A stretch of DNA of 64,000 nt, taken from the NCBI GenBank assembly GCA_016176465.1, contig JACOXD010000011.1, positions 12,318 through 76,317 of the forward strand, read 5' to 3'. The stretch is from Candidatus Daviesbacteria bacterium. GTDB lineage: Bacteria > Patescibacteriota > Microgenomatia > Daviesbacterales > UBA10151. Below, piece after piece: positions 1-8,860 of the stretch. The translations under genes were made by a program, and so were the position numbers. Under the pieces are notes generated by a model. The model made no database searches and had not been told where the DNA came from. It saw nothing but the letters and a program-made list of their open reading frames with translations. The first letter of the stretch is position 1; each line of letters begins with the position of its first letter.

Positions 1-137
1 CAGGTTGTGTTAACATTTCTACTCCTTATCAGCTCCCTCTTCATCCGATTGTCTTTCCAAAAGCTCCTGTTCGTCATCCTGGCTGCTACAAACCTCACAC
101 GGACATTTACCCGATTCGACCATTTCATCAACTGTGA

Positions 138-1580
138 TCATGCTTCTACCTCCTCTGTGTAGGAAAGTTCGGTTTGCGTTAGTTTAGAAGGTGACACTTG
201 TGACTCATGTGACTCTGCTTCTGATATACCGCTATCTTCTGAAGGGTCTGAATCTTTATTAGGTATATCTGTTTCAGTGTCAGAAGTGTCATTAGAGGTA
301 TCCAAACCATAATTGAGTTTGAGTTTCTCAATTAGATCCAGATCGTAGAAAATCCCTCGCTTACCAGCTGTCCTCTTCTTTACGAACCCTAACCCTCTTA
401 ATATTCTGCCGATGACATCTTCTGCTAGAGTAAATCGTTCTTCCTTACCAGTGTTAATTTTTTTAGTAACAGCCTCTATAGATAGGAATCCTTTTTCTAC
501 TTCGTAATTCAGGTCAATTACCATCTCTAAAACCTTGGCTTCTAGGGAATCAGTTGCATCTTCTTTTTTCCTCTCGGAAATAATGTTTAACAGTCGGGCA
601 AAAGAAGCTTCTTTTTCTGGGAAATAAGTGGTAACTATTTTATATAGTGAGCCAGCAATATCACCCAAACGCCCAGAAGCGGGTTTATCTACCTCTTTCA
701 GCTCATCCTGATAGTGTAAAATCCTAAAAGCAGTTAACCTGGCCTTTAGCTCCCATGCATCCTTAGGCGTTACTGGGTTATTGAATACCTTGCCTGTAGG
801 CTTCATATCAACTGAAATAGCTCTTGACTCTAAAATATCGTCAACAGGTCTATTTGTGGCAATTATGGTTGGACCAAATAAATTAAAGGTTTTGGTATCC
901 CTAAAGGCTCCTTTCTCAGGCCACAGGGTGCGTGATGAACTAGATCCTTCCTCGAACCGTGCCAAAATAAGATCATCACAATTAGCTCTTTGAAACTTCT
1001 TAGGTGCATCCTTAACATCAAAGCCTAAAGCAGCCTTATGGTCGTTACCCCAGCGGATAATATCAGCTTCCCGTACAGTCTCCGTCCATACTCCTCGGCG
1101 AGATACATAGATACATCCCTTACCGGTTCTACTTTTACCCCTCTCCTTAACTGCATAAAGATAAATAATGGGTGAAAAGTGCAGCTTATCCAATAGGTAG
1201 GTATGGAAATCCCACAAGGCTAAAAGGTCGTAATAGGCTTCATGGGGAAGATCTGATATATTCTTATGGTAAGTGAGCAACTCCTCATACAGATCTAAGC
1301 TGTGTCGTAGATTAGCCTTGTATTCAGCTAGATAATGGAAGACTTTGTCAGCATCGGCTATAAAGTAGGGTATTGAACTTTTAGGGGGTGGTGCAAAAAC
1401 CTTATCTTCAACCCTTATGGTGTCTACAAGATTCAGTCCTTCGGTTAGATAAACTAGTTTCTCTTCAACAACTAAGACATCAATGGTTCCTGGAGCATCT
1501 AGGGAGTATGTTACTCTGTCTTCTTTATTACTATCTTTTTTGGCTTTTAGCTTTTCATCAATCCCTTCAAAATTATCCAT
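138..1580 (-). CDS. Replication-associated protein (partner of Prim-Pol; primase C-terminal/helicase-like?), acidic Ser/Asp-rich tail
   Basis: 480 aa ORF overlapping the Prim-Pol stop by 8 bp (operon); no clear Walker A found; function inferred from context only. Confidence 0.3.
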   Translation of the reverse strand: MDNFEGIDEKLKAKKDSNKEDRVTYSLDAPGTIDVLVVEEKLVYLTEGLNLVDTIRVEDKVFAPPPKSSIPYFIADADKVFHYLAEYKANLRHSLDLYEELLTYHKNISDLPHEAYYDLLALWDFHTYLLDKLHFSPIIYLYAVKERGKSRTGKGCIYVSRRGVWTETVREADIIRWGNDHKAALGFDVKDAPKKFQRANCDDLILARFEEGSSSSRTLWPEKGAFRDTKTFNLFGPTIIATNRPVDDILESRAISVDMKPTGKVFNNPVTPKDAWELKARLTAFRILHYQDELKEVDKPASGRLGDIAGSLYKIVTTYFPEKEASFARLLNIISERKKEDATDSLEAKVLEMVIDLNYEVEKGFLSIEAVTKKINTGKEERFTLAEDVIGRILRGLGFVKKRTAGKRGIFYDLDLIEKLKLNYGLDTSNDTSDTETDIPNKDSDPSEDSGISEAESHESQVSPSKLTQTELSYTEEVEA

Positions 1581-2370
1581 TTTTTGTCCTTTCCCTAGTC
1601 AGAAAATTGACAGCACTTTCAAATTTCCGATTGACTTCTTTGGTTGCTAGTGGAGGCTGAAAGGTGGAATTTATAAAGAGCAGAAATTGATAGACTAGTT
1701 TTGATGGGATACCACGAGCCAATAAGCTACAAGCAGCTCTGTAGAGATTAATATCTCTAGCACCCTCTGTTTGCCCTAGAATTGACTTCCAATCCAAATT
1801 AGTTGAACTTTTGTTTGTACCCTGAAGATCAATTATCCATTGAGGCATTTCATGAAATTCATTAACAAATGGTGGAGTAATCCAAGTATATTGATTACCA
1901 GAGGCATGAATTGATGGTGGTAGAATTACGTAACCGCCATCGGATTTTAGATCAATTCCATCTTTTATCCCATTCTGGCTATGAACATTAGGATTATACT
2001 GGTAGAAATGGTGTGATCCACCCCCACCAGTTTGTGACTTAACTGTATCTGTTAGGTTATCAGTAGTACCAGCATGTCTTGGGTCAACATCAATTACACT
2101 AACACCGGATAGTTTTCCTGTAACAAGGCCAATATTTGCCCAGGGCCACTTTGACCACCAATCGTTTATCTCATCAATAGTTGGTAATTTCTTTTGGTAT
2201 TCAAACCAAGACTCAAGACAAGGTTTTTTATTGGACGGGTTAATAGGGATAACTGACCAACCTTTTGAAAGATATTTTAAAGCAGCCTCTAGATTAGTCA
2301 TTCTGTGCTTCCTCCGCTGCAACAAGTACGTATCCCTTTCCCTCACAGCCCTGACAAACTTTCGCTCCAT
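1573..2370 (-). CDS. Bifunctional DNA primase/polymerase (AEP-superfamily Prim-Pol) N-terminal domain protein
   Basis: Motifs KGWSVIP, GLVTG, VIDVDPRHAG (hhDhD), GGGSHHFY (sxH), IDLKSDGGYVILPPSIHASGNQYTW typical of pfam Prim-Pol. Confidence 0.75.
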   Translation of the reverse strand: MERKFVRAVRERDTYLLQRRKHRMTNLEAALKYLSKGWSVIPINPSNKKPCLESWFEYQKKLPTIDEINDWWSKWPWANIGLVTGKLSGVSVIDVDPRHAGTTDNLTDTVKSQTGGGGSHHFYQYNPNVHSQNGIKDGIDLKSDGGYVILPPSIHASGNQYTWITPPFVNEFHEMPQWIIDLQGTNKSSTNLDWKSILGQTEGARDINLYRAACSLLARGIPSKLVYQFLLFINSTFQPPLATKEVNRKFESAVNFLTRERTKNG

Positions 2371-2515
2371 ATTTCAAAGTTCCAAAACCACGACAAACCG
2401 GACACTCAATCGGTAAGTGCTTAGCTTTTACTTTAATTACTCTGATTTTTGTTTCTTTTTGAAAGTCGTCCATGCCATCCAAACCCAATCCTTTGAGATC
2501 ATAATGGCACATCAA
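2294..2515 (-). CDS. Small DnaJ-type zinc-finger protein (CxxCxGxG x2)
   Basis: 73 aa; CPVCRGFG ... CQGCEGKG repeats. Confidence 0.4.
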   Translation of the reverse strand: MMCHYDLKGLGLDGMDDFQKETKIRVIKVKAKHLPIECPVCRGFGTLKYGAKVCQGCEGKGYVLVAAEEAQND

Positions 2516-2603
2516 TTAAGGCTTCTCAAAAGGATTGTGTGAGAATTTTGATCCTGAAACAGACCAAAAAAGTTTTTATTAAAGCCGTATAAAGTAATGG
2601 GGC

Positions 2604-2993
2604 TTAAGTAGGTTTAAGATGATAAAACCACTTTCTACCTCGCCTGAACTTATCTATACCCATGTTCATATTTCTTAAGGGTTCATAAGATTTTATTGTC
2701 TTTCTGGTATCAGTTACCAAACGTCCTGGTGCCTTGCTATTTGTCTCTTCTGCAATCCCATTAATATCAAGGGAACCTTTTATAATAAGCGCTTCAAGTA
2801 GTTTTTGTTGTTTTTCTGGAAAATGAAAATTCTTTATGATAGTTTTGAACAAGCTGGTACGCTGTCTTCTGGCACTCTTTGGGTATTTTGGTTCATCAAT
2901 TTCTCTGATTTCATGACCCTCATCAGCCAAAAAAAGCCGCATTGCTGCTTGGGCAATAGGGGGCATTGATAGTTTTTTCTTCCTTCCATCCAT
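2604..2993 (-). CDS. Hypothetical protein (mobile-element accessory); starts with MDGRKK shared 19-nt start sequence
   Basis: 129 aa ORF; first 19 nt identical to start of ORF at 5262. Confidence 0.35.
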   Translation of the reverse strand: MDGRKKKLSMPPIAQAAMRLFLADEGHEIREIDEPKYPKSARRQRTSLFKTIIKNFHFPEKQQKLLEALIIKGSLDINGIAEETNSKAPGRLVTDTRKTIKSYEPLRNMNMGIDKFRRGRKWFYHLKPT

Positions 2994-3217
2994 CCTTCAA
3001 TAATTCCTTATATTGCGTGCATGGATTAACAGATTTTTCCAAGCTCACTACGCAGGGTAATTATACCTTAAAAAGTAGTATAATTGAATCTGAGCAGGCG
3101 TGGAGATAATTTTACCCCTAAGGATATTAAATTTTAACTATTTTTCACTTATTCTGGAAGCTAATGTAAGATTGTAGTGGGGGTATACATTTTTGATATG
3201 TGCTGTTAACCAGCTTC

Positions 3218-4081
3218 CTAAGGCTGAGCCATAATTTGTATCTTTTCCCGTTCCAATGCACTTTTTTCAGCTTGCAGCAAGTCAATTCTGTATCTCATGT
3301 CAGCTATAGTGTTGTTAATCATTTGTGTACAGATGTAATTATCACACCCTTGATCAAATTGTTGAACTTGGGCCTGTATATTGTTCTGCCAAAAAGCAAT
3401 GTCCTTATTGATCTTATTAATTTTTCCATCAATCATTTTTAGAGCTTGTTCTTTTCCTGTATTGGGGCTGGGAGTTGGTGAGGGGGTGGGTGTTGGAGTA
3501 CTTGTGGGCTTTGGGGTAGGAGAGCTTGTTTTAGGAACTTGAACGGGTTTAGGTGTAGGAGATACGTCCTTCAAAATTATATCTGATGAATCAAGTTTCC
3601 ATTTTCCGTCTTCTAATACCAGCTTCCAGATTCCTTCAAAAGTTTTGGTTTGAACTTGTCCCTTTAAATCATCTTTAGCTTCTATCTGAACATAAACTAT
3701 CTTGTTTGATAAATCCTGGACATAGACATCTTTAGTTACTACATTTAATGTGTTTTTGTAACCACTGACAAAATTATCATAATTCTGGGCATAATTTTGA
3801 AAATTTTTACTTAATAGATTCCAGGCAGAATCAAATTCTTTGGAAGATATTGCGGCATAGAAATCTTTTACAGGTATTAATAGATCAGATTCAACCATGG
3901 GAACAGGAGTTGGAGAAGGTTCTTGTTGCTCGGTTAGATTTTTTATCTGTAACAATCCACCTTCTCCGCTTAGGTTTAATTTAACTAAACCTGTTTCCCT
4001 AACCACCGCTACTGTAAATAATCCTACTACAGCCCAGATTATAATTGGAATTACCACAAATCCTTTTTGAGAGTTTGTCAT
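3218..4081 (-). CDS. Membrane-anchored protein with Pro/Thr-rich linker and C-terminal coiled coil
   Basis: N-terminal TM helix, PTPKPTSTPTPTPSPTPSP linker, Q-rich coiled-coil tail. Confidence 0.45.
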   Translation of the reverse strand: MTNSQKGFVVIPIIIWAVVGLFTVAVVRETGLVKLNLSGEGGLLQIKNLTEQQEPSPTPVPMVESDLLIPVKDFYAAISSKEFDSAWNLLSKNFQNYAQNYDNFVSGYKNTLNVVTKDVYVQDLSNKIVYVQIEAKDDLKGQVQTKTFEGIWKLVLEDGKWKLDSSDIILKDVSPTPKPVQVPKTSSPTPKPTSTPTPTPSPTPSPNTGKEQALKMIDGKINKINKDIAFWQNNIQAQVQQFDQGCDNYICTQMINNTIADMRYRIDLLQAEKSALEREKIQIMAQP

Positions 4082-4126
4082 ATTATTTACTCCTACTTTA
4101 TGTTAACACACCCAAAACCACTACAT

Positions 4127-4309
4127 TCACGGCTGCCACCAAGGTTTTTGACATTCTTCCCAAGCATCAAAACTCGTAATTTTACCCGCCATACGATCAG
4201 CAAATTCCTTTTGGCAATGATTATAGTACACATCACTTCTCCAGAAGTAAAAAAATAGAAGCCCAAACCCTATTAAGGCAACAATTAATACTTTTTGAAA
4301 GGTTGTCAT
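4127..4309 (-). CDS. Small single-pass membrane peptide, MTTFQK family (2 Cys in tail)
   Basis: 60 aa; MTTFQKVLIVALIGFGLLFFYFW... paralogous to 4333-4505 and 4972-5235. Confidence 0.4.
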   Translation of the reverse strand: MTTFQKVLIVALIGFGLLFFYFWRSDVYYNHCQKEFADRMAGKITSFDAWEECQKPWWQP

Positions 4310-4332
4310 TGTTTAATATATATGTTTATTTT

Positions 4333-4505
4333 TTATCAGGAATGAATCCAAAACCTTGCTTCGAATATTGATCGCAAATAGTAAAACGTTGTGGCGTTTC
4401 TGCTGTAGCACAAGCATAAAATTCAAAACCTGTTTTAAAAAAATATAAAAAGAGGGCTCCAAAAACTATTAAAATTGAAATAAGCCATTTTTGAAAAGTT
4501 GTCAT
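4333..4505 (-). CDS. Small single-pass membrane peptide, MTTFQK family paralog (57 aa, not in ORF track)
   Basis: Manual translation of minus strand: MTTFQKWLISILIVFGALFLYFFKTGFEFYACATAETPQRFTICDQYSKQGFGFIPDKK. Confidence 0.35.
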
Positions 4506-4952
4506 TTATCCTTTTCTATCTTTCTTCCTAATATGATCAATAAATATACTAACTATGGCATACAAAAAACCCAGAGCCAAAAAAGCACCCATTAATATTA
4601 GCAGAGATCCTGAGATAGCTCCTCCTATTTTTACTAAAATAGGATTACCCATATACCAACCTAGAAACATGAAAAGTGCGATAATAGATAATATAACAAT
4701 GCCAGTACGCCACACGTTACCTACAACCCACCAAAGTGTCACTTTCAGTCCGTCTTGCTCAATTCTTTTATCAACTTTCTTCCATAGTTTTTGAACAAGT
4801 AGAACTCCAAAGAAAAATAAAAGGACCTTGAAAGTATTCGTGTAGGTTTCTTCTGCAATAAAAGATATAAAAATGATCAAACCCAAGAGGGTAATTATGA
4901 CTGTATTATTTGATTCATCGTTATTGCTGTAATCTCCAATTTTATGTATCAT
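4506..4952 (-). CDS. Multi-pass membrane protein (4 TM), hypothetical
   Basis: 148 aa hydrophobic ORF. Confidence 0.4.
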   Translation of the reverse strand: MIHKIGDYSNNDESNNTVIITLLGLIIFISFIAEETYTNTFKVLLFFFGVLLVQKLWKKVDKRIEQDGLKVTLWWVVGNVWRTGIVILSIIALFMFLGWYMGNPILVKIGGAISGSLLILMGAFLALGFLYAIVSIFIDHIRKKDRKG

Positions 4953-4971
4953 TATTTTCCCTCTAAAAGAT

Positions 4972-5262
4972 TTAGGTTAACCAGAAAAAAATCAAAATTA
5001 CCAGGAAGAAAATAATATAGATTAATGTTATTTTCTTATAAAATTTCTGTTCAGATTTTTGCTCTATAACTAAATCCCATAGACTTAAACCTGTATGAAT
5101 TCCAGTTTTTAAGTTGAATGTAGAAATAGTAACTAGAATTGCCAAAAAAAACATCACTGGCGCAACAGCTGCTATAACTAAAATTTGAATAGGAAAAAAA
5201 AGAATTGCAACAAGCAATTTTTGAAAAGCTGTCATACTATTTGTTTTCTTCCTTCCATCCAT
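4972..5262 (-). CDS. Small membrane protein, MTAFQK family paralog with MDGRKK N-extension
   Basis: ORF track 4972-5301; likely start at 5262 (ATGGATGGAAGGAAG) or 5235 (MTAFQK). Confidence 0.35.
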   Translation of the reverse strand: MDGRKKTNSMTAFQKLLVAILFFPIQILVIAAVAPVMFFLAILVTISTFNLKTGIHTGLSLWDLVIEQKSEQKFYKKITLIYIIFFLVILIFFWLT

Positions 5263-5449
5263 ACCAGTATGAAAGTAGGAAAATTCCAATGATAACCACA
5301 ATTACTACTACCTGTTGTGAGTCTCCTCTTTCAAGAACTGGGGAAAGAAGCTGAAGCCCAAGAATTAAAGTTATTACAAAAAGAACTGCATAGGCATATT
5401 TTCTAAATCTCTTTGGAAACAGCAATAAAAGCCAAAGAATAGGATTCAT
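5237..5449 (-). CDS. Small 2-TM membrane protein, hypothetical
   Basis: 70 aa hydrophobic ORF. Confidence 0.3.
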   Translation of the reverse strand: MNPILWLLLLFPKRFRKYAYAVLFVITLILGLQLLSPVLERGDSQQVVVIVVIIGIFLLSYWYGWKEENK

Positions 5450-5531
5450 GTTCGTTTAACCTCAATTCATGCGTAAAACTGGAATATATTTCCTGTTCAT
5501 ATTCTGGCATATATTCCAGAATTTAGTCAAT

Positions 5532-5741
5532 ATGACCAAATATAAAAAACTTGGAGAGAAAGTTAAGAAATTGAGGAAAGCTCGAGATTGGACGCAAGAA
5601 AAATTGGCAGAAGCTGCAAATGTTGACCCAAAGACAATTATAGAGTTAGAAGCTGGTAAAAGAGCAAACCCTACCCTCCAAACTCTTAATAAACTTGCAA
5701 GAGCCTTAAAAACTTCTCTTGAAGAGTTACTCTCTACCTAA
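5532..5741 (+). CDS. XRE-family helix-turn-helix transcriptional regulator
   Basis: LGEKVKKLRKARDWTQEKLAEAANVDPKTIIELEAGKRANPTLQTLNKLARAL; start moved to internal ATG 5532. Confidence 0.7.
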   Translation: MTKYKKLGEKVKKLRKARDWTQEKLAEAANVDPKTIIELEAGKRANPTLQTLNKLARALKTSLEELLST

Positions 5742-5976
5742 AAATCCTGAGATGGTACCAATTTGAAGAAATTTATCCAGCTGGGGTTTTAAGGACCCTT
5801 AGAATAAGGACAGGGGACGTGAGAACCTATATATATTTTCCCACAGTTCCTATCTATGCTGTAAGCACAAAGTCACACACCACCTTCTGTATCAGAGAAA
5901 CCCCTTTTCTTTCTACTTCCTGTAATGTTAGTTATCGGAACAAAAATTGTCTGTCCTCCTATCTTAGCCTCAGCGT

Positions 5977-6699
5977 TCAGTTAATGGTCGTATACTGAAC
6001 ACCTGTGGGCAAATAATCCTTATAAAATGGGTTGTCCAAGATATATTTTATGCTTGATTTACCCATTCCAAACTTATCCCCAATAGCTTGCAAGGTTAGC
6101 TTCTCTTTTATTCTGAAGTTAAAGATTGCTTTTACCTTTTCAAACTCATTCTTATCAATGACCAAATCACTCTTTTGTGCCATATTACGCTTCTTTAACT
6201 TAAAGCCAAGCGGTAACATATCAGGTGATCCAAGTCTTCTACCCTGCCTTGTAAGTTCCTGTAGTGCATCAATTGTACGTTCTGCTATCAGATCCCGCTC
6301 CATCTGTGCCATAGCTCCCATGACTGTAAGAAAAAACTTACCAGAAGCAGAACTTGTATCTATATTCTCGTTTAGACTTATAAATTGAATATCATTTTTT
6401 GCAAAAACATCTTCAATAAGATAGAGGAGGTCCCGAGTTTTACGGGTTAATCGGTCTAATTTGTAGCAAATAACACCATCTATTTTCTTTTCCTTGACTA
6501 AATTTATGATTTTTTGAAGTCCTGGTCTATTCATGGTCTTACCAGATTTACCCTCCTCAATAATCATTTCCACTAAATCCATGTCCTTTAAATCCGCATA
6601 AGCCATAATTTTATGCTCCTGATTATCTAAGCTAACACCATCACGGCTCTGCTCAAGAGTTGATACCCTGGTATATCCAATTACTCTAAGCTTTTTCAT
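5977..6699 (-). CDS. Serine recombinase (resolvase/invertase type, N-terminal catalytic domain)
   Basis: VIGYTRVSTLEQ ... DGVICYKLDRLTR ... catalytic-Ser resolvase motifs. Confidence 0.85.
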   Translation of the reverse strand: MKKLRVIGYTRVSTLEQSRDGVSLDNQEHKIMAYADLKDMDLVEMIIEEGKSGKTMNRPGLQKIINLVKEKKIDGVICYKLDRLTRKTRDLLYLIEDVFAKNDIQFISLNENIDTSSASGKFFLTVMGAMAQMERDLIAERTIDALQELTRQGRRLGSPDMLPLGFKLKKRNMAQKSDLVIDKNEFEKVKAIFNFRIKEKLTLQAIGDKFGMGKSSIKYILDNPFYKDYLPTGVQYTTIN

Positions 6700-7241
6700 T
6701 TTTCTTCCTCATCAACAATTTTTATCCTTCTGTATCCCTTAATTGGTTTGCCATATGCGTAATGCGTTGGTGAACCTAAGATAGATTGCGGACGTCCTTT
6801 GTATTCTGGTTGATCTAATTTCTTAGTGAAATGTTTAACATCCGCTGTGAGTTTTCTGATGTCCTCGTTACAGGTATATAGATTTATTGCTTGGTGTAAG
6901 AAAACCGCCATAGAACCGCCAGGTTGGGCAGTTAATACTGGAGATAGCTTTTCAATAGCCTCATTAAACTGTTGTACTAATTTCGATCTTTCTTCTGATT
7001 TATCCGGTAAAGGAAGTCCAGCATATACTAATAACTCGGTACCATTTATCCTGTACCATTTACCTCCAAATTTATTAGCCTGTAACCTTCCTGATTTGAT
7101 AGCTCGATGAATAGTGGCTACTGAAACATGAAGCAATTCAGCTGCTTCCTCTGCTGTATAGGTCGTGAAATGTAATATTGGATCGCTCATAATGTTTAAG
7201 TCTACATCAACGATGATGTATTTGTCAATATTAAGATTCAT
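6696..7241 (-). CDS. Excisionase-family HTH DNA-binding protein (Xis/MerR-like) with C-terminal extension
   Basis: TAEEAAELLHVSVATIHRAIKSGRLQANKFGGKWYRING; 4-bp overlap with recombinase start. Confidence 0.55.
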   Translation of the reverse strand: MNLNIDKYIIVDVDLNIMSDPILHFTTYTAEEAAELLHVSVATIHRAIKSGRLQANKFGGKWYRINGTELLVYAGLPLPDKSEERSKLVQQFNEAIEKLSPVLTAQPGGSMAVFLHQAINLYTCNEDIRKLTADVKHFTKKLDQPEYKGRPQSILGSPTHYAYGKPIKGYRRIKIVDEEEK

Positions 7242-7286
7242 AATTAGATCATTTGCATGTGCTCTTGATAATCTTGAAAGGGGTAA

Positions 7287-7832
7287 CTAGTCTAATGAAA
7301 GGTTAATGGTCTTAACTTTCTCGATAGCCACCTTAAAGGCAGTGATACCATCGACTAAATCGGCATAGGCTCTATGTAATTGCCTAAAAGATACATACTT
7401 ACCAAGGCTATTCCAAGAAGGATGTGCAAAATCATTCCTTATATCATTTACTCTTGTCATTAATCTAAATAAGTCAACATCGAATTCGTATGTTTCATTA
7501 AGCTTTCTAAAAACCTCTAAGCGGCGAGCAAAACCTAATCTTTCTATAAAATTATCATAAAGAAACCTTGCTCTAGCTAATTGCGGTCCAGTTAGAGGTT
7601 TATCCCGAATTAAAATCCCTTTTGGATAAAAGTAATGTAGGATTGTAGTCGTCATCCCATCATCCATTTCAGCGTGAACAAAAATGGCCCAGTGCCTCAG
7701 CTCTTTTAAATCTTCTTTGGTTATATCTCCAAATGGTGGAGTCCTTCGATCAAAAACAGTTTCTAATCCCTCTAATATTTGTTTAAGAGTTGTAATCTGT
7801 TGCTTGTAGTTATTCACCCAGAAATTATACAA
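7287..7832 (-). CDS. Hypothetical protein
   Basis: 181 aa ORF, no recognised motif. Confidence 0.3.
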   Translation of the reverse strand: MYNFWVNNYKQQITTLKQILEGLETVFDRRTPPFGDITKEDLKELRHWAIFVHAEMDDGMTTTILHYFYPKGILIRDKPLTGPQLARARFLYDNFIERLGFARRLEVFRKLNETYEFDVDLFRLMTRVNDIRNDFAHPSWNSLGKYVSFRQLHRAYADLVDGITAFKVAIEKVKTINLSLD

Positions 7833-8089
7833 TAGAAGAACATATACTACCGTATGAACTCAAAGAGATCTGTAAATTTGTAGTTCCTGAAATGACAGGT
7901 TTGGTATTAGGGCCAGACTAACGTCTACCAGGTGGACACCAGAGCCCTAATTAAACCGCAAAAGTAGCTATTTTTAAATGATTCTTAAGTTGAGATAATT
8001 GAGCAAATAGTAATTGTGTTTCACTTGAGTTACTATCTAACAGTTGCGTTATAGGTTCGAGTACAGAACCGACTCCCGCTCCAAGATGG

Positions 8090-8860
8090 AACACCTTCGA
8101 GGTGGTCTAGGCAGGCACCTCTTCTCTATTCTAAAACCAAGTGCTTGATCTTATCTAATTCTCTAGCATAGCTTACTTGATCCAAAACAAATTTTTTATA
8201 TTCATTTATAGATTTAAAAAAACCTAAAACCTCCTCAGAGCTTGTAATCTTCTCTGCTTTTGGTACCAAATACTCAAAGTAAGAAGACCATTGGTAGTTT
8301 TCCAAATCCTCCGTCTTAATTAAGTAGGAAGTTACTGGGTTTAGATGAATATATCTTGATAGATGAATAAACTGTTCATCAGAATCAACAAACACTGCCT
8401 TGAATAACCCCTGAAGAAGTGGACCCACTCTTTTATTTTTGGTGTTAAAGTATTTGGTATAAGAGTTAGAAAAGTTAGATATAAATTTAGATATACCATT
8501 TTCTTTCTTCTGCTTTAGTAGGAAGTGAAAATGGTTGGGCATTAAACAAAAAGCAATAATTTCTACTAATACATTCTCATCATCTAAGTTTTTCCATAAT
8601 TCATCTTTTTTGTCATTTGCGAGATCTAAAAACTTGGAAAATTTCAAAGGCAGACTTCCGTAGCGGTAAAACTTTAAAGTTTCTAAAGCTCTTGAATATT
8701 CCCTGCTTTTGGTAAAAATTGGACGCTTCTCTACACCTCGATTAAAAACATGATAGATGATCTGCTCATTTGCAAAAACAAACTTTCTATTTGTGGGCAT
8801 CTATTTAAAGTATGGACTAAAAAAGGACAGGTGTCAACCCAGACCACCTTTCAGGTGGTT
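8090..8860 (-). mobile_element. IS200/IS605-like element (HUH Y1 transposase flanked by CACCT-N3-AGGTG hairpins; TTGACA in left end)
   Basis: Hairpins at 8092-8104 (caccttcgaggtg) and 8844-8858 (ccacctttcaggtgg) flank tnpA-like ORF; same motif flanks second copy at 42.5 kb. Confidence 0.6.
8126..8800 (-). CDS. tnpA: IS200-like / REP-associated tyrosine (HUH, Y1) transposase
   Basis: HuH motif LMPNHFHFLL and catalytic Tyr in SRYIHLNPV; ~70% identical paralog at 42589-43233. Confidence 0.75.
   Translation of the reverse strand: MPTNRKFVFANEQIIYHVFNRGVEKRPIFTKSREYSRALETLKFYRYGSLPLKFSKFLDLANDKKDELWKNLDDENVLVEIIAFCLMPNHFHFLLKQKKENGISKFISNFSNSYTKYFNTKNKRVGPLLQGLFKAVFVDSDEQFIHLSRYIHLNPVTSYLIKTEDLENYQWSSYFEYLVPKAEKITSSEEVLGFFKSINEYKKFVLDQVSYARELDKIKHLVLE

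Follow-up and report, generated by a model that had tools for sequence, protein, structure and literature searches.

A putative self-replicating integrative element of Candidatus Daviesbacteria with a large serine recombinase probably beside tRNA-Gly

Archaeo-eukaryotic primases (AEPs) of the PrimPol-PV1 type occur in small, highly variable integrated elements that reside mostly in tRNA genes (Kazlauskas et al. 2018, PMC5862659). These elements are bounded by direct repeats that result from recombinases of the tyrosine or the serine class. Their primase is encoded beside, or is part of a fusion with, helicases of varied and partly uncharacterised families; the partners named are DUF927, DUF3987, VirE, MCM, RepA and DnaB, and lineages of the candidate phyla radiation (CPR) are not mentioned (PMC5862659). 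The present report concerns an element found in Candidatus Daviesbacteria, a CPR bacterium. It lies at the left edge of a stretch of 64,000 nucleotides (nt) from contig JACOXD010000011.1, which is termed here the window.

The staphylococcal cassette chromosome mec (SCCmec) integrates at the 3′ end of rlmH (orfX), and its Cch2 type uses an A-family polymerase together with a partner protein as primase. In archaeal tyrosine integrases of the SSV (Sulfolobus spindle-shaped virus) type, and in mycobacteriophages with integration-dependent immunity, attP, the attachment site of the element, is located inside a gene of the element, and integration splits the open reading frame (ORF). In the mycobacteriophage case the split gene is that of the repressor and integration at a tRNA gene removes a C-terminal tag; the recombinases are again of the tyrosine type. 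To our knowledge, precedents with attP inside a gene of the element are known only for tyrosine recombinases, and tRNA genes are regarded as a target class almost exclusive to tyrosine integrases. A survey from 2020 notes no report of large serine integrases that use t(m)RNA genes and asks for proof of such use; there, the phiRSM group is cited as site-specific element integrases, and the IS607 clade is called promiscuous (PMC7192596).

The Daviesbacteria element is about 9.8 kb in length, comprising window positions 1–8083 and approximately 1.75 kb further left, and is very probably an integrative and self-replicating element. This degree of confidence is a joint one: it covers an integrated element, a large serine recombinase (LSR) acting at tRNA-Gly, an ORF split by integration, a replication module and an accessory recombinase, all taken together. 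The host is given by the 480-amino acid (aa) protein of the element, which is NCBI locus tag HYS91_05155 on an 82.6-kb (82,593-bp) contig of Candidatus Daviesbacteria. On the minus strand, the gene order is the detached tail of the LSR, a HEPN-like gene, an HTH_17 gene, a small serine recombinase gene and a divergent XRE gene, followed by a block of membrane-protein genes, a zinc-ribbon gene, the Prim-Pol gene, the gene of an MCM-like helicase, two small ORFs and the LSR gene. The G+C content is 0.39–0.41 in window 1–3000, which contains the replication module, against 0.33–0.37 in 3000–8000; the flanks have about 0.30–0.34.

A reading of the window made from the sequence alone had proposed an integrated, replicon-like mobile module of an uncultured lineage, different from phages with tyrosine integrases. 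This proposal is supported, and the ORFs on which it was based are all present. The gene complement has no tyrosine integrase, and no ORF of the element matches capsid, portal, terminase, tail or packaging genes in Pfam or PHROGs, which rules out a tailed prophage. The limits that had been given, 1–7850, need correction on both sides. At the left, about 1.75 kb must be added, with a 60-aa ORF and a 527-aa LSR, and the right end is at 8073–8083.

The large serine recombinase and the ends of the element

Five Logan contigs carry a protein identical to the 480-aa protein. The longest of these, L001, is the reverse complement of window 8357..1, an exact match, and runs 1,567 nt past the window start; the extension encodes a 60-aa ORF and an LSR. 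The complete LSR, P0121, has 527 aa, was retrieved by homology search and is recorded from the same 82.6-kb contig. The extension of L001 and the presence of P0121 on this contig therefore place the LSR at the left end of the element, at about window −172 to −1755. The sequence-only reading assigned integration to a small serine recombinase and not to a large one; this is an artefact that arises because the LSR sits just outside the window. Three domains are recognised in the LSR, namely Resolvase (E 3.5e-17), Recombinase (E 1.5e-4) and Zn_ribbon_recom (E 4.5e-7), and the AlphaFold2 (AF2) model of its homologue P0125 displays all three, with long helices at residues 342–444. Members of the LSR clade are less than 27% identical to any integrase in deposited phage genomes. 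The best NCBIfam scores of the LSR, and also those of the small recombinase, are against Ccr and XisF models and lie far below the cut-offs. An LSR-fragment scan of genome contigs found no relative.

The C-terminus of P0121 reads ...SYGAGEGS before the stop codon. When P0121 and its homologues are aligned, the C-termini diverge into GFEPATFSLEGRHSTAELLPR, GTRTQNPQLKRL and GAGEGDRTPYVHFGKVTFYR, which are translated antisense tRNA. In P0122, a fragment that is 79% identical to P0121, the tail continues as GAGEGTRTPDVQLGKLTFYH, also antisense tRNA sequence. Given the GAGEGS tail and its continuation in P0122, the LSR probably abuts a tRNA-Gly 3′ end on the plus strand, outside the window, and a tRNA-Gly would thus stand beside the LSR at the left.

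Abutment on a tRNA 3′ end is a property of the LSR clade. Seventy loci of the clade came from a scan of Joint Genome Institute (JGI) metagenome contigs and seven from a scan of IMG/VR, and the presence of tRNA genes was counted over the 46 loci having at least 250 nt beyond LSR residue 490. A tRNA gene starts 16–109 nt after this residue in 39 of the 46 loci. Each of these 39 genes is on the strand opposite to the LSR, and tRNA-Gly accounts for 26 of them. By these gene positions, the clade as a whole appears to target tRNA genes, which goes beyond what known AEP-primase elements show.

Contig ends near the LSR recur. In IMG/VR, seven predicted viral contigs of 30–60 kb (L167–L173) have an LSR of the same clade 0.1–1.6 kb from their end, and several metagenome contigs also end just after the LSR. 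These ends are consistent with assemblies that break at the attachment (att)/tRNA site, and also with full-size CPR phages using this clade. Contigs L001 and L002 (Logan, runs SRR12113430 and SRR12113383) both break at the same base, in LSR codon 465. This is at about window −1567, ~190 nt short of the LSR stop. The shared break may represent an assembly-graph branch from strain variation or from coexisting forms of the element.

At the right boundary is the 11-mer CTCCCGCTCCA (8073..8083, plus strand), the 3′ acceptor end of tRNA-Gly with CCA, which is present as a single exact copy in the window. The sequence-only reading had suggested that att-like repeats be sought at 7850–8100, and the att remnant was located within this region. 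The reverse complement of 8073–8083 codes for GAG, matching GAGEGS at the end of P0121. A minus-strand ORF from 8094 to 7951 reads HLGAGVGSVLEPITQLLDSNSSETQLLFAQLSQLKNHLKIATFAV. It begins with codons that are the reverse complement of CTCCCGCTCCA, and its remainder resembles the long C-terminal tail of the LSR P0125. Positions 7951..8075 (minus strand), which code for ...GSVLEPITQLLDSNSSETQLLFAQLSQLKNHLKIATFAV and a stop, constitute the detached 3′ end of the integrase ORF, corresponding to the C-terminal tail of the LSR in apparently unintegrated relatives.

The assignment of the tail was examined with hidden Markov models (HMMs). A leave-one-out tail HMM, from which the window was excluded, was applied to the six-frame translation of the 64 kb and found only 8046–7972 (minus strand, E 7.4e-6), the next value being 0.96. 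With a small HMM, the tail motif is seen at the integrase-distal junctions of six integrated elements, among them L025, L069, L070, L022 and L091, just inside the tRNA-like remnant. The tail of L091, which is outside the model, was found independently (E 1.4e-10). The tail is contiguous with the LSR ORF in L016/L017 (P0125), L086 (P0136) and L085 (P0158), in all of which the LSR lacks a tRNA behind it. A small-terminase gene (Terminase_2) comes after the LSR in L086, as would be expected for a phage genome that is not integrated. Since the peptide at the right end is the LSR's own C-terminal tail in these apparently unintegrated relatives, attP appears to be located inside the integrase ORF.

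Several properties of the tail region bear on its coding status. The ratio of non-synonymous to synonymous polymorphism (pN/pS) of the tail is 0.40 for L069 against L025, a single pair of 27 codons that is weak alone. The window and L091 share the DNA motif GGTTCTnnnCTCGAACCT beside the tRNA remnant; it is read in different frames, which are re-synchronised before the conserved peptide. This pattern fits an att arm maintained at the DNA level, then a tail maintained at the protein level, and the data indicate that the tail codes for protein. In the AF2 model of P0125 (predicted local distance difference test, pLDDT, 87), the att-encoded residues 496–524 are disordered, and tail helices are formed by residues 521–529 and 532–553 (pLDDT ~70–78).

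Both junctions are visible in L025. They share TGGAGCGGGTGA(A/G)GG, with 12 identical nt and 14/15 overall. Exact tRNA-end repeats were sought upstream of 25 related LSRs, and plausible ones were found only in L025 (12 nt) and L022 (15 nt); most of the elements either have cores that are too short or extend past the 10-kb flank.

According to the proposed mechanism, the LSR would recombine the 3′ end of tRNA-Gly with an attP situated inside the LSR's own ORF, ~45 codons upstream of the stop. Integration would replace the C-terminal helix of the LSR by a few antisense-tRNA codons (...GAGEGS and a stop), and the ~40 tail codons would be left ~9.8 kb away, at window 7951–8075. Excision would yield a circular form in which the long LSR is restored.

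This raises the question of whether the attP-embedded integrase of the CPR clade, besides targeting tRNA genes, functions as an integration-dependent switch between a long episomal and a short integrated isoform. Such a role is possible but rather doubtful. The episomal LSR would have the flexible att-encoded linker and the conserved terminal helix and the integrated LSR would end in antisense-tRNA codons, and perhaps the isoforms differ in stability or in the favoured direction of recombination. If the tail matters, this would be a new way to couple the form of an integrase to its state of integration.

A 40-aa ORF (19..141, minus strand) is found between the helicase gene and the 60-aa ORF and LSR gene outside the window, and was also called on the Logan contigs. 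Its N-terminal 22–23 residues are 95–100% identical in L006 and L069, where it has the same place after the helicase gene. No recombination directionality factor is assignable by sequence; the 40-aa and 60-aa ORFs and the HTH_17 protein are candidates only. In L091 (7130–7706, minus strand), just inside the distal junction, are overlapping genes of 103 and 92 aa that by eye resemble a toxin-antitoxin pair.

The replication module and mobility

The gene of the AEP primase-polymerase (1573..2370, minus strand) encodes a Prim-Pol domain (PF09250, E 7.5e-35, 121 bits with a cut-off of 22.8) and a PriCT_1 domain (PF08708, E 1.3e-8, 34.8 bits with a cut-off of 21.1). The protein also matches PHROG families of DNA primase/polymerase. 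Gene callers place its start at window 2301 on the Logan contigs, which gives 242 aa. The end of the Prim-Pol gene overlaps by 8 nt the ATG (1580) of the gene encoding the 480-aa protein (138..1580, minus strand), and this suggests translational coupling.

The AF2 model of the 480-aa protein (pLDDT 88.1; predicted template modelling score, pTM, 0.82) has an AAA+ core of the MCM/superfamily 3 (SF3) type, an N-terminal beta domain and a C-terminal winged-helix-like domain. The acidic C-terminal tail is disordered, with pLDDT <50 at residues 430–472. Structural matches in PDB include 8tch and 7ola, which are replication proteins of Staphylococcus aureus pathogenicity islands (SaPIs). In the Walker-A-like sequence AVKERGKS, G148 and K149 are invariant, and acidic and Asn/Arg positions are also conserved. 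Judging from the modelled fold, the protein is a probable replicative helicase/initiator. The Prim-Pol and its acidic-tailed partner of 480 aa, which the sequence-only reading had pointed out, are borne out by the Prim-Pol domain matches, the overlap of the two genes and the predicted disorder of the tail.

At the sequence level the helicase stands apart. It has no match in Pfam (even at E <= 1), NCBIfam, PHROGs or PADLOC, and the DUF927, D5_N, DUF3631, VirE and MCM profiles match 0/70 members of its family in the helicase region. The family profile matched no PDB sequence, and tblastn found no relative in 50,697 phage or 72,556 plasmid records. The proposal that D5_N, PriCT, DUF3631 or SF3 profiles might identify the protein did not hold, as none matches by sequence; it is the fold that is MCM-like AAA+. 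A search with the family profile yields 5,202 cluster representatives at E <= 1e-3, and 664 at E <= 1e-30. Homologues are found alone, or fused C-terminal to Prim-Pol/PriCT_1, DnaG-type zinc-ribbon/Toprim, DUF3854, RepB-primase or NrS-1-type domains. The model suggests that the protein works like the self-loading MCM-like helicases of mobile elements, without being a sequence member of DUF927, D5_N, DUF3631 or VirE. It defines a sizeable family of primase-associated MCM-like helicases that has no Pfam model.

Upstream of Prim-Pol is a zinc-ribbon miniprotein of about 72 aa (2294..2515, minus strand). It had been described as a DnaJ-type Zn-finger protein, and two CxxCxGxG motifs are indeed present, but the DnaJ_CXXCXGXG match is below threshold (E 0.003, 18 bits with a cut-off of 32.7). 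Homologues are encoded beside the primase gene in L006, L009, L025, L070 and L087. The divergent XRE/HTH_3 regulator (5469..5741, plus strand; Pfam HTH_3, E 2e-16) has counterparts in the equivalent place in L006, L009, L025, L027, L069 and L087. Replication of an episome would rely on the MCM-like helicase and on a primase made up of Prim-Pol and the zinc-ribbon protein, a scheme also proposed for SCCmec and SaPIs, and would be under control of the XRE switch.

The closest replication module is that of L006 (helicase 75% and Prim-Pol 83% identical), which has a different gene neighbourhood and is located at tRNA-Lys with a quite different recombinase. L069, with Prim-Pol 89%, helicase 73% and LSR 47% identical, is at tRNA-Thr, and the LSR of L007 is at tRNA-Gln. 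The modules are thus found at different tRNA genes and with different recombinases; therefore integrase and replication modules have been shuffled, and the block is not ancestral to the chromosome. An ancestral block, shared in synteny by all relatives, had been the alternative considered in the sequence-only reading. It does not apply, as the homologous modules are non-syntenic and lie at various tRNA genes of various CPR lineages.

Two relatives show further features. At the position of the integrase, L006 (11681–13501, plus strand) encodes a 606-aa protein that has no Pfam match and starts like a serine recombinase (YGIDISRVS...). It ends in antisense tRNA-Lys codons, ...AGDRTQDQEIKSLLLYR, overlapping tRNA-Lys(ttt), and looks like a very divergent serine integrase missed by current profiles. 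L010 (4477–6939, minus strand) encodes two FtsK/SpoIIIE-type ATPases alongside an 89%-identical small recombinase and an LSR, which suggests DNA translocation, for transfer or packaging, in some members of the element group.

A different view of the element would be that of a small virus or phage satellite: a membrane-containing pleomorphic virus, or a satellite resembling phage-inducible chromosomal islands (PICIs) that depends on 30–60-kb CPR phages with the same integrase clade. The membrane block would then consist of virion or helper-exploitation genes, and the five small membrane proteins and the anchored 287-aa protein described below do represent about a quarter of the element. Integrase, repressor and primase-helicase together form the SaPI/PICI layout, with the SaPI proteins 8tch and 7ola among the structural matches, but Pfam and PHROGs give no PICI-type match, as they give none to capsid, portal, terminase or packaging genes; the sole 'virion' match is to a low-complexity Pro/Thr stretch. 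Phage contigs do carry the LSR clade, next to Terminase_2 in L086 and in the seven IMG/VR contigs, and FtsK/SpoIIIE-type ATPases are encoded in the related L010; however, no helper phage was identified, and the helicase is without a relative in the 50,697 phage records. A virus or satellite is accordingly considered unlikely, and an integrative element that replicates itself is the preferred explanation.

The small serine recombinase and other genes

The small serine recombinase (5977..6699, minus strand; 240 aa; Resolvase, E 5e-43) is preceded by the gene of a 181-aa HTH_17 (excisionase/MerR-like) protein (6696..7241, minus strand; HTH_17, E 7.5e-11; TIGR01764 'excise', E 3.4e-10). The end of the HTH_17 gene overlaps the start of the recombinase gene by 4 nt (ATGA), which suggests translational coupling. 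The overlap of a resolvase-type recombinase gene with an excisionase-family gene had been noted correctly from the sequence. The recombinase consists of a catalytic domain and a short helix-turn-helix, and over its last 80 residues it can be aligned with the beginning of the LSR Recombinase domain; the zinc-ribbon and coiled-coil parts of LSRs are absent. It aligns to CcrB positions 4–232, and PF07508 (partial) is recorded in many family members. HTH_7 gives no match in Pfam, and the length class of 225–250 aa is unlike that of the ~180–210-aa resolvases. Among annotated proteins, the recombinase is closest (~37% identity) to the N-terminal ~230 residues of CcrB, CcrC, XisF and phage serine integrases (NCBIfam, PHROG). 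Residues Y9, R11, S13, D82, R83 and R86 are invariant in 32 members of the family. A truncated LSR pseudogene was considered and rejected, as there are hundreds of 225–250-aa relatives of the same architecture and the catalytic residues are intact.

The recombinase is 87–89% identical in the otherwise divergent L009 and L010. In L009 the LSR shares only 33% identity with that of the window element, and Prim-Pol is fused to AAA_25; L010 has the FtsK-type ATPases, an AAA_25 protein and an LSR. The DNA similarity to both stops at the ends of the ORF, and an IS-like mobile unit is rejected on this basis. In L091, from Curtissbacteria, the recombinase is 91% identical over the 96 residues present on the contig (3–98) and is found ~2.9 kb inside the tail motif. 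HTH_17 proteins adjoin the recombinase in L009 (66 aa, downstream) and, as a 324-aa HTH_17-like protein, in L091 (upstream).

Every island examined that holds a relative of the small recombinase also has a separate integrase, which is of the LSR type in L009 and L010 and of the tyrosine type in L094, L096 and L102. The last three, from Nitrospirae/Thermodesulfovibrionales, contain more distant members of the small-recombinase family and are islands of 9–10.5 kb bounded by 25–34-nt repeats of the 3′ ends of tRNA-Asp or tRNA-Val. The small recombinase is 1–2 kb from the tRNA, a Prim-Pol or DnaG-AAA_25 protein is encoded mid-island, and the tyrosine integrase encoded at the far end carries an N-terminal CxxC motif. 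These Nitrospirae islands match the CPR element in layout but differ in the class of integrase. Because the family co-occurs with a separate integrase of either type, the 240-aa recombinase is regarded as accessory and not as the integrase. From these gene associations, the recombinase and its HTH_17 partner appear to be a recurrent accessory of tRNA-integrated self-replicating islands, whatever the integrase type. By exclusion, the recombinase probably resolves multimers of the episome.

The sequence-only reading took the resolvase-type recombinase and the Xis-like protein to be an integration system, and this is very unlikely. The pair is situated 1.4 kb from the right att remnant, yet the codons at that junction are the tail of the LSR, a full-length enzyme encoded at the other end of the element whose clade is at a tRNA in 39/46 loci. 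The catalytic residues are all intact and the closest characterised relatives are the N-terminal halves of serine integrases, but the protein is without the zinc-ribbon and coiled-coil domains on which site pairing and directionality depend in LSRs. Recombinase and HTH_17 protein are kept as a pair in the window, L009 and L091, although in L009 the recombinase is mid-element and not at an end. Small serine recombinases can be tRNA-targeting integrases, and the phiRSM group is so cited (PMC7192596); in the islands of all relatives examined here, however, it is a separate integrase that adjoins the att repeat.

Two unrelated elements in tandem at the same tRNA-Gly, one with LSR, Prim-Pol, helicase and XRE and the other with small recombinase, HTH_17 and HEPN-like genes, would agree with the unequal G+C of the two halves (0.39–0.41 against 0.33–0.37) and with a small recombinase far better conserved than its neighbours across elements, but this arrangement is highly improbable and is rejected, as the window lacks an internal att copy (the only other near match to the tRNA-Gly end, with one mismatch, is inside the recombinase ORF), the codons of the LSR tail are found at the far right, beyond the small-recombinase block, so that both blocks are enclosed by one attP-derived pair, and the same combination recurs in L009, L010 and L091.

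The element as a single integrated, self-replicating unit has several observations weighing against it. On L001 the LSR gene is cut off at codon 465, and both the tRNA-Gly on the left and the repeat length are derived from the P0121 protein tail and from relatives; at the right end, identity is assertable for 11 nt only. The unintegrated status of L016/L017, L085 and L086 rests on the lack of a tRNA, and in L086 also on the terminase, and the contigs are not closed circles. A scan of genome contigs and exact-protein matching of element and flank proteins found no empty site or circular junction; the matching gave no hit for P0121, the Y1_Tnp-like neighbour at the right boundary, the 181-aa protein or a 951-aa glycosyltransferase. 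No iterons or tandem repeats marking an origin were detected in the element. Near the small recombinase (5700–7300) there are no convincing res- or hix-like direct or inverted repeats, though short or degenerate sites would escape, and a housekeeping resolvase role does not explain the 87–91% conservation of this protein across divergent elements.

The remaining genes of the element lie for the most part between the replication module and the XRE gene. Five small hydrophobic proteins of 60, 59, 148, 96–109 and 70 aa (4127..5449, minus strand) have no family matches, and three of them start with MT(T/A)FQK. This block of small membrane proteins, like the divergent XRE regulator, is as had been described from the sequence. 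A membrane-anchored protein of 287 aa (3218..4081, minus strand) has a Pro/Thr-rich linker and a C-terminal coiled-coil-like region, and displays only low-complexity matches; it starts with MTNSQK, a sequence related to the N-termini of the small membrane ORFs. Direct repeats cover the starts of the membrane ORFs (4049–4081, 4292–4330, 4473–4526 and 5203–5235) and give four membrane proteins the N-terminus MT(T/A/N)(F/S)QK. The shared start repeats therefore indicate that the block consists of paralogues with conserved translation starts. An exact 19-nt repeat at 2975–2993 and 5244–5262 results in two ORFs that start with MDGRKK, one encoding a 129-aa protein with no family match (2604..2993, minus strand) and the other being the long form of the 109-aa ORF. 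The membrane proteins may have cargo or transfer functions, and the 287-aa protein is a candidate cargo or surface protein.

The last complete gene before the right end encodes a protein of 181 aa (7287..7832, minus strand) that is possibly HEPN-like (HEPN_Apea, E 0.0045, below threshold). PADLOC has no match for it; the sole PADLOC match in the element is an HTH match (mad1) on the HTH_17 protein. A HEPN-domain protein (E 4e-4) is found in the equivalent spot beside the tRNA in the Nitrospirae island L094. Rfam gives no match within the element, and scans of the element for promoters and terminators were no better than shuffles. Directly to the right of the boundary (8126–8800, minus strand) is the gene of a 224-aa protein that resembles Y1_Tnp (IS200-like) or REP-associated tyrosine transposases (Pfam, E 2.7e-8; NCBIfam REP_Tyr_transpos, E 1.9e-12, below cut-off).

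Comparison with known systems

Literature searches found no case of attP inside a serine integrase gene and no CPR integrative element of this type, which is absence of evidence only. In SSV-type integrases and in the mycobacteriophages, as here, the episomal and integrated forms encode different proteins. The difference is that the split ORF is that of an LSR, and that only ~40 C-terminal residues, a linker and one helix, are exchanged.

With respect to small serine recombinases, those of the phiRSM and IS607 groups also move DNA. The 240-aa protein differs from the phiRSM group in that it is never the sole recombinase of an island, and its C-terminal domain is like the start of the LSR Recombinase domain. 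In IS607 the HTH_17 module is an N-terminal fusion, whereas here it is a separate protein, and the IS607 model scores 44 bits against a cut-off of 110.

Mobile elements of Patescibacteria are barely described, and the present element offers a bounded example with an inventory of integrase, replication module, regulator and accessory recombinase. As the LSR clade shares less than 27% identity with deposited phage integrases, its members are therefore new candidate genome-engineering tools for conserved tRNA sites.

The element is functionally closest to SCCmec and the SaPI-type islands. Like SCCmec, it is a small chromosomal island mobilised by one or more LSRs (CcrA/B or CcrC in SCCmec) and has its own primase and MCM-like helicase (Cch in SCCmec). 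It differs in being located at a tRNA gene and in having a helicase that is not a DUF927 member by sequence. The second recombinase is a 240-aa mini form encoded far from the LSR, and there is no adjacent pair like CcrA/CcrB. SaPIs and PICIs have an integrase, a repressor and the primase-helicase Pri-Rep; here the integrase is a serine and not a tyrosine recombinase, and no packaging or capsid-remodelling genes were detected. With the PrimPol-PV1 elements, the locus has in common a Prim-Pol and PriCT_1 primase in a small tRNA-integrated element. Its helicase family matches none of the named partners by sequence, and an integrase ORF that spans attP is not described for those elements (PMC5862659). 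Thus, the Daviesbacteria element belongs to the known type of small integrated AEP-primase elements, and beyond that type it displays an apparently tRNA-targeting LSR clade, attP within the LSR ORF and an unmodelled family of probable helicases.

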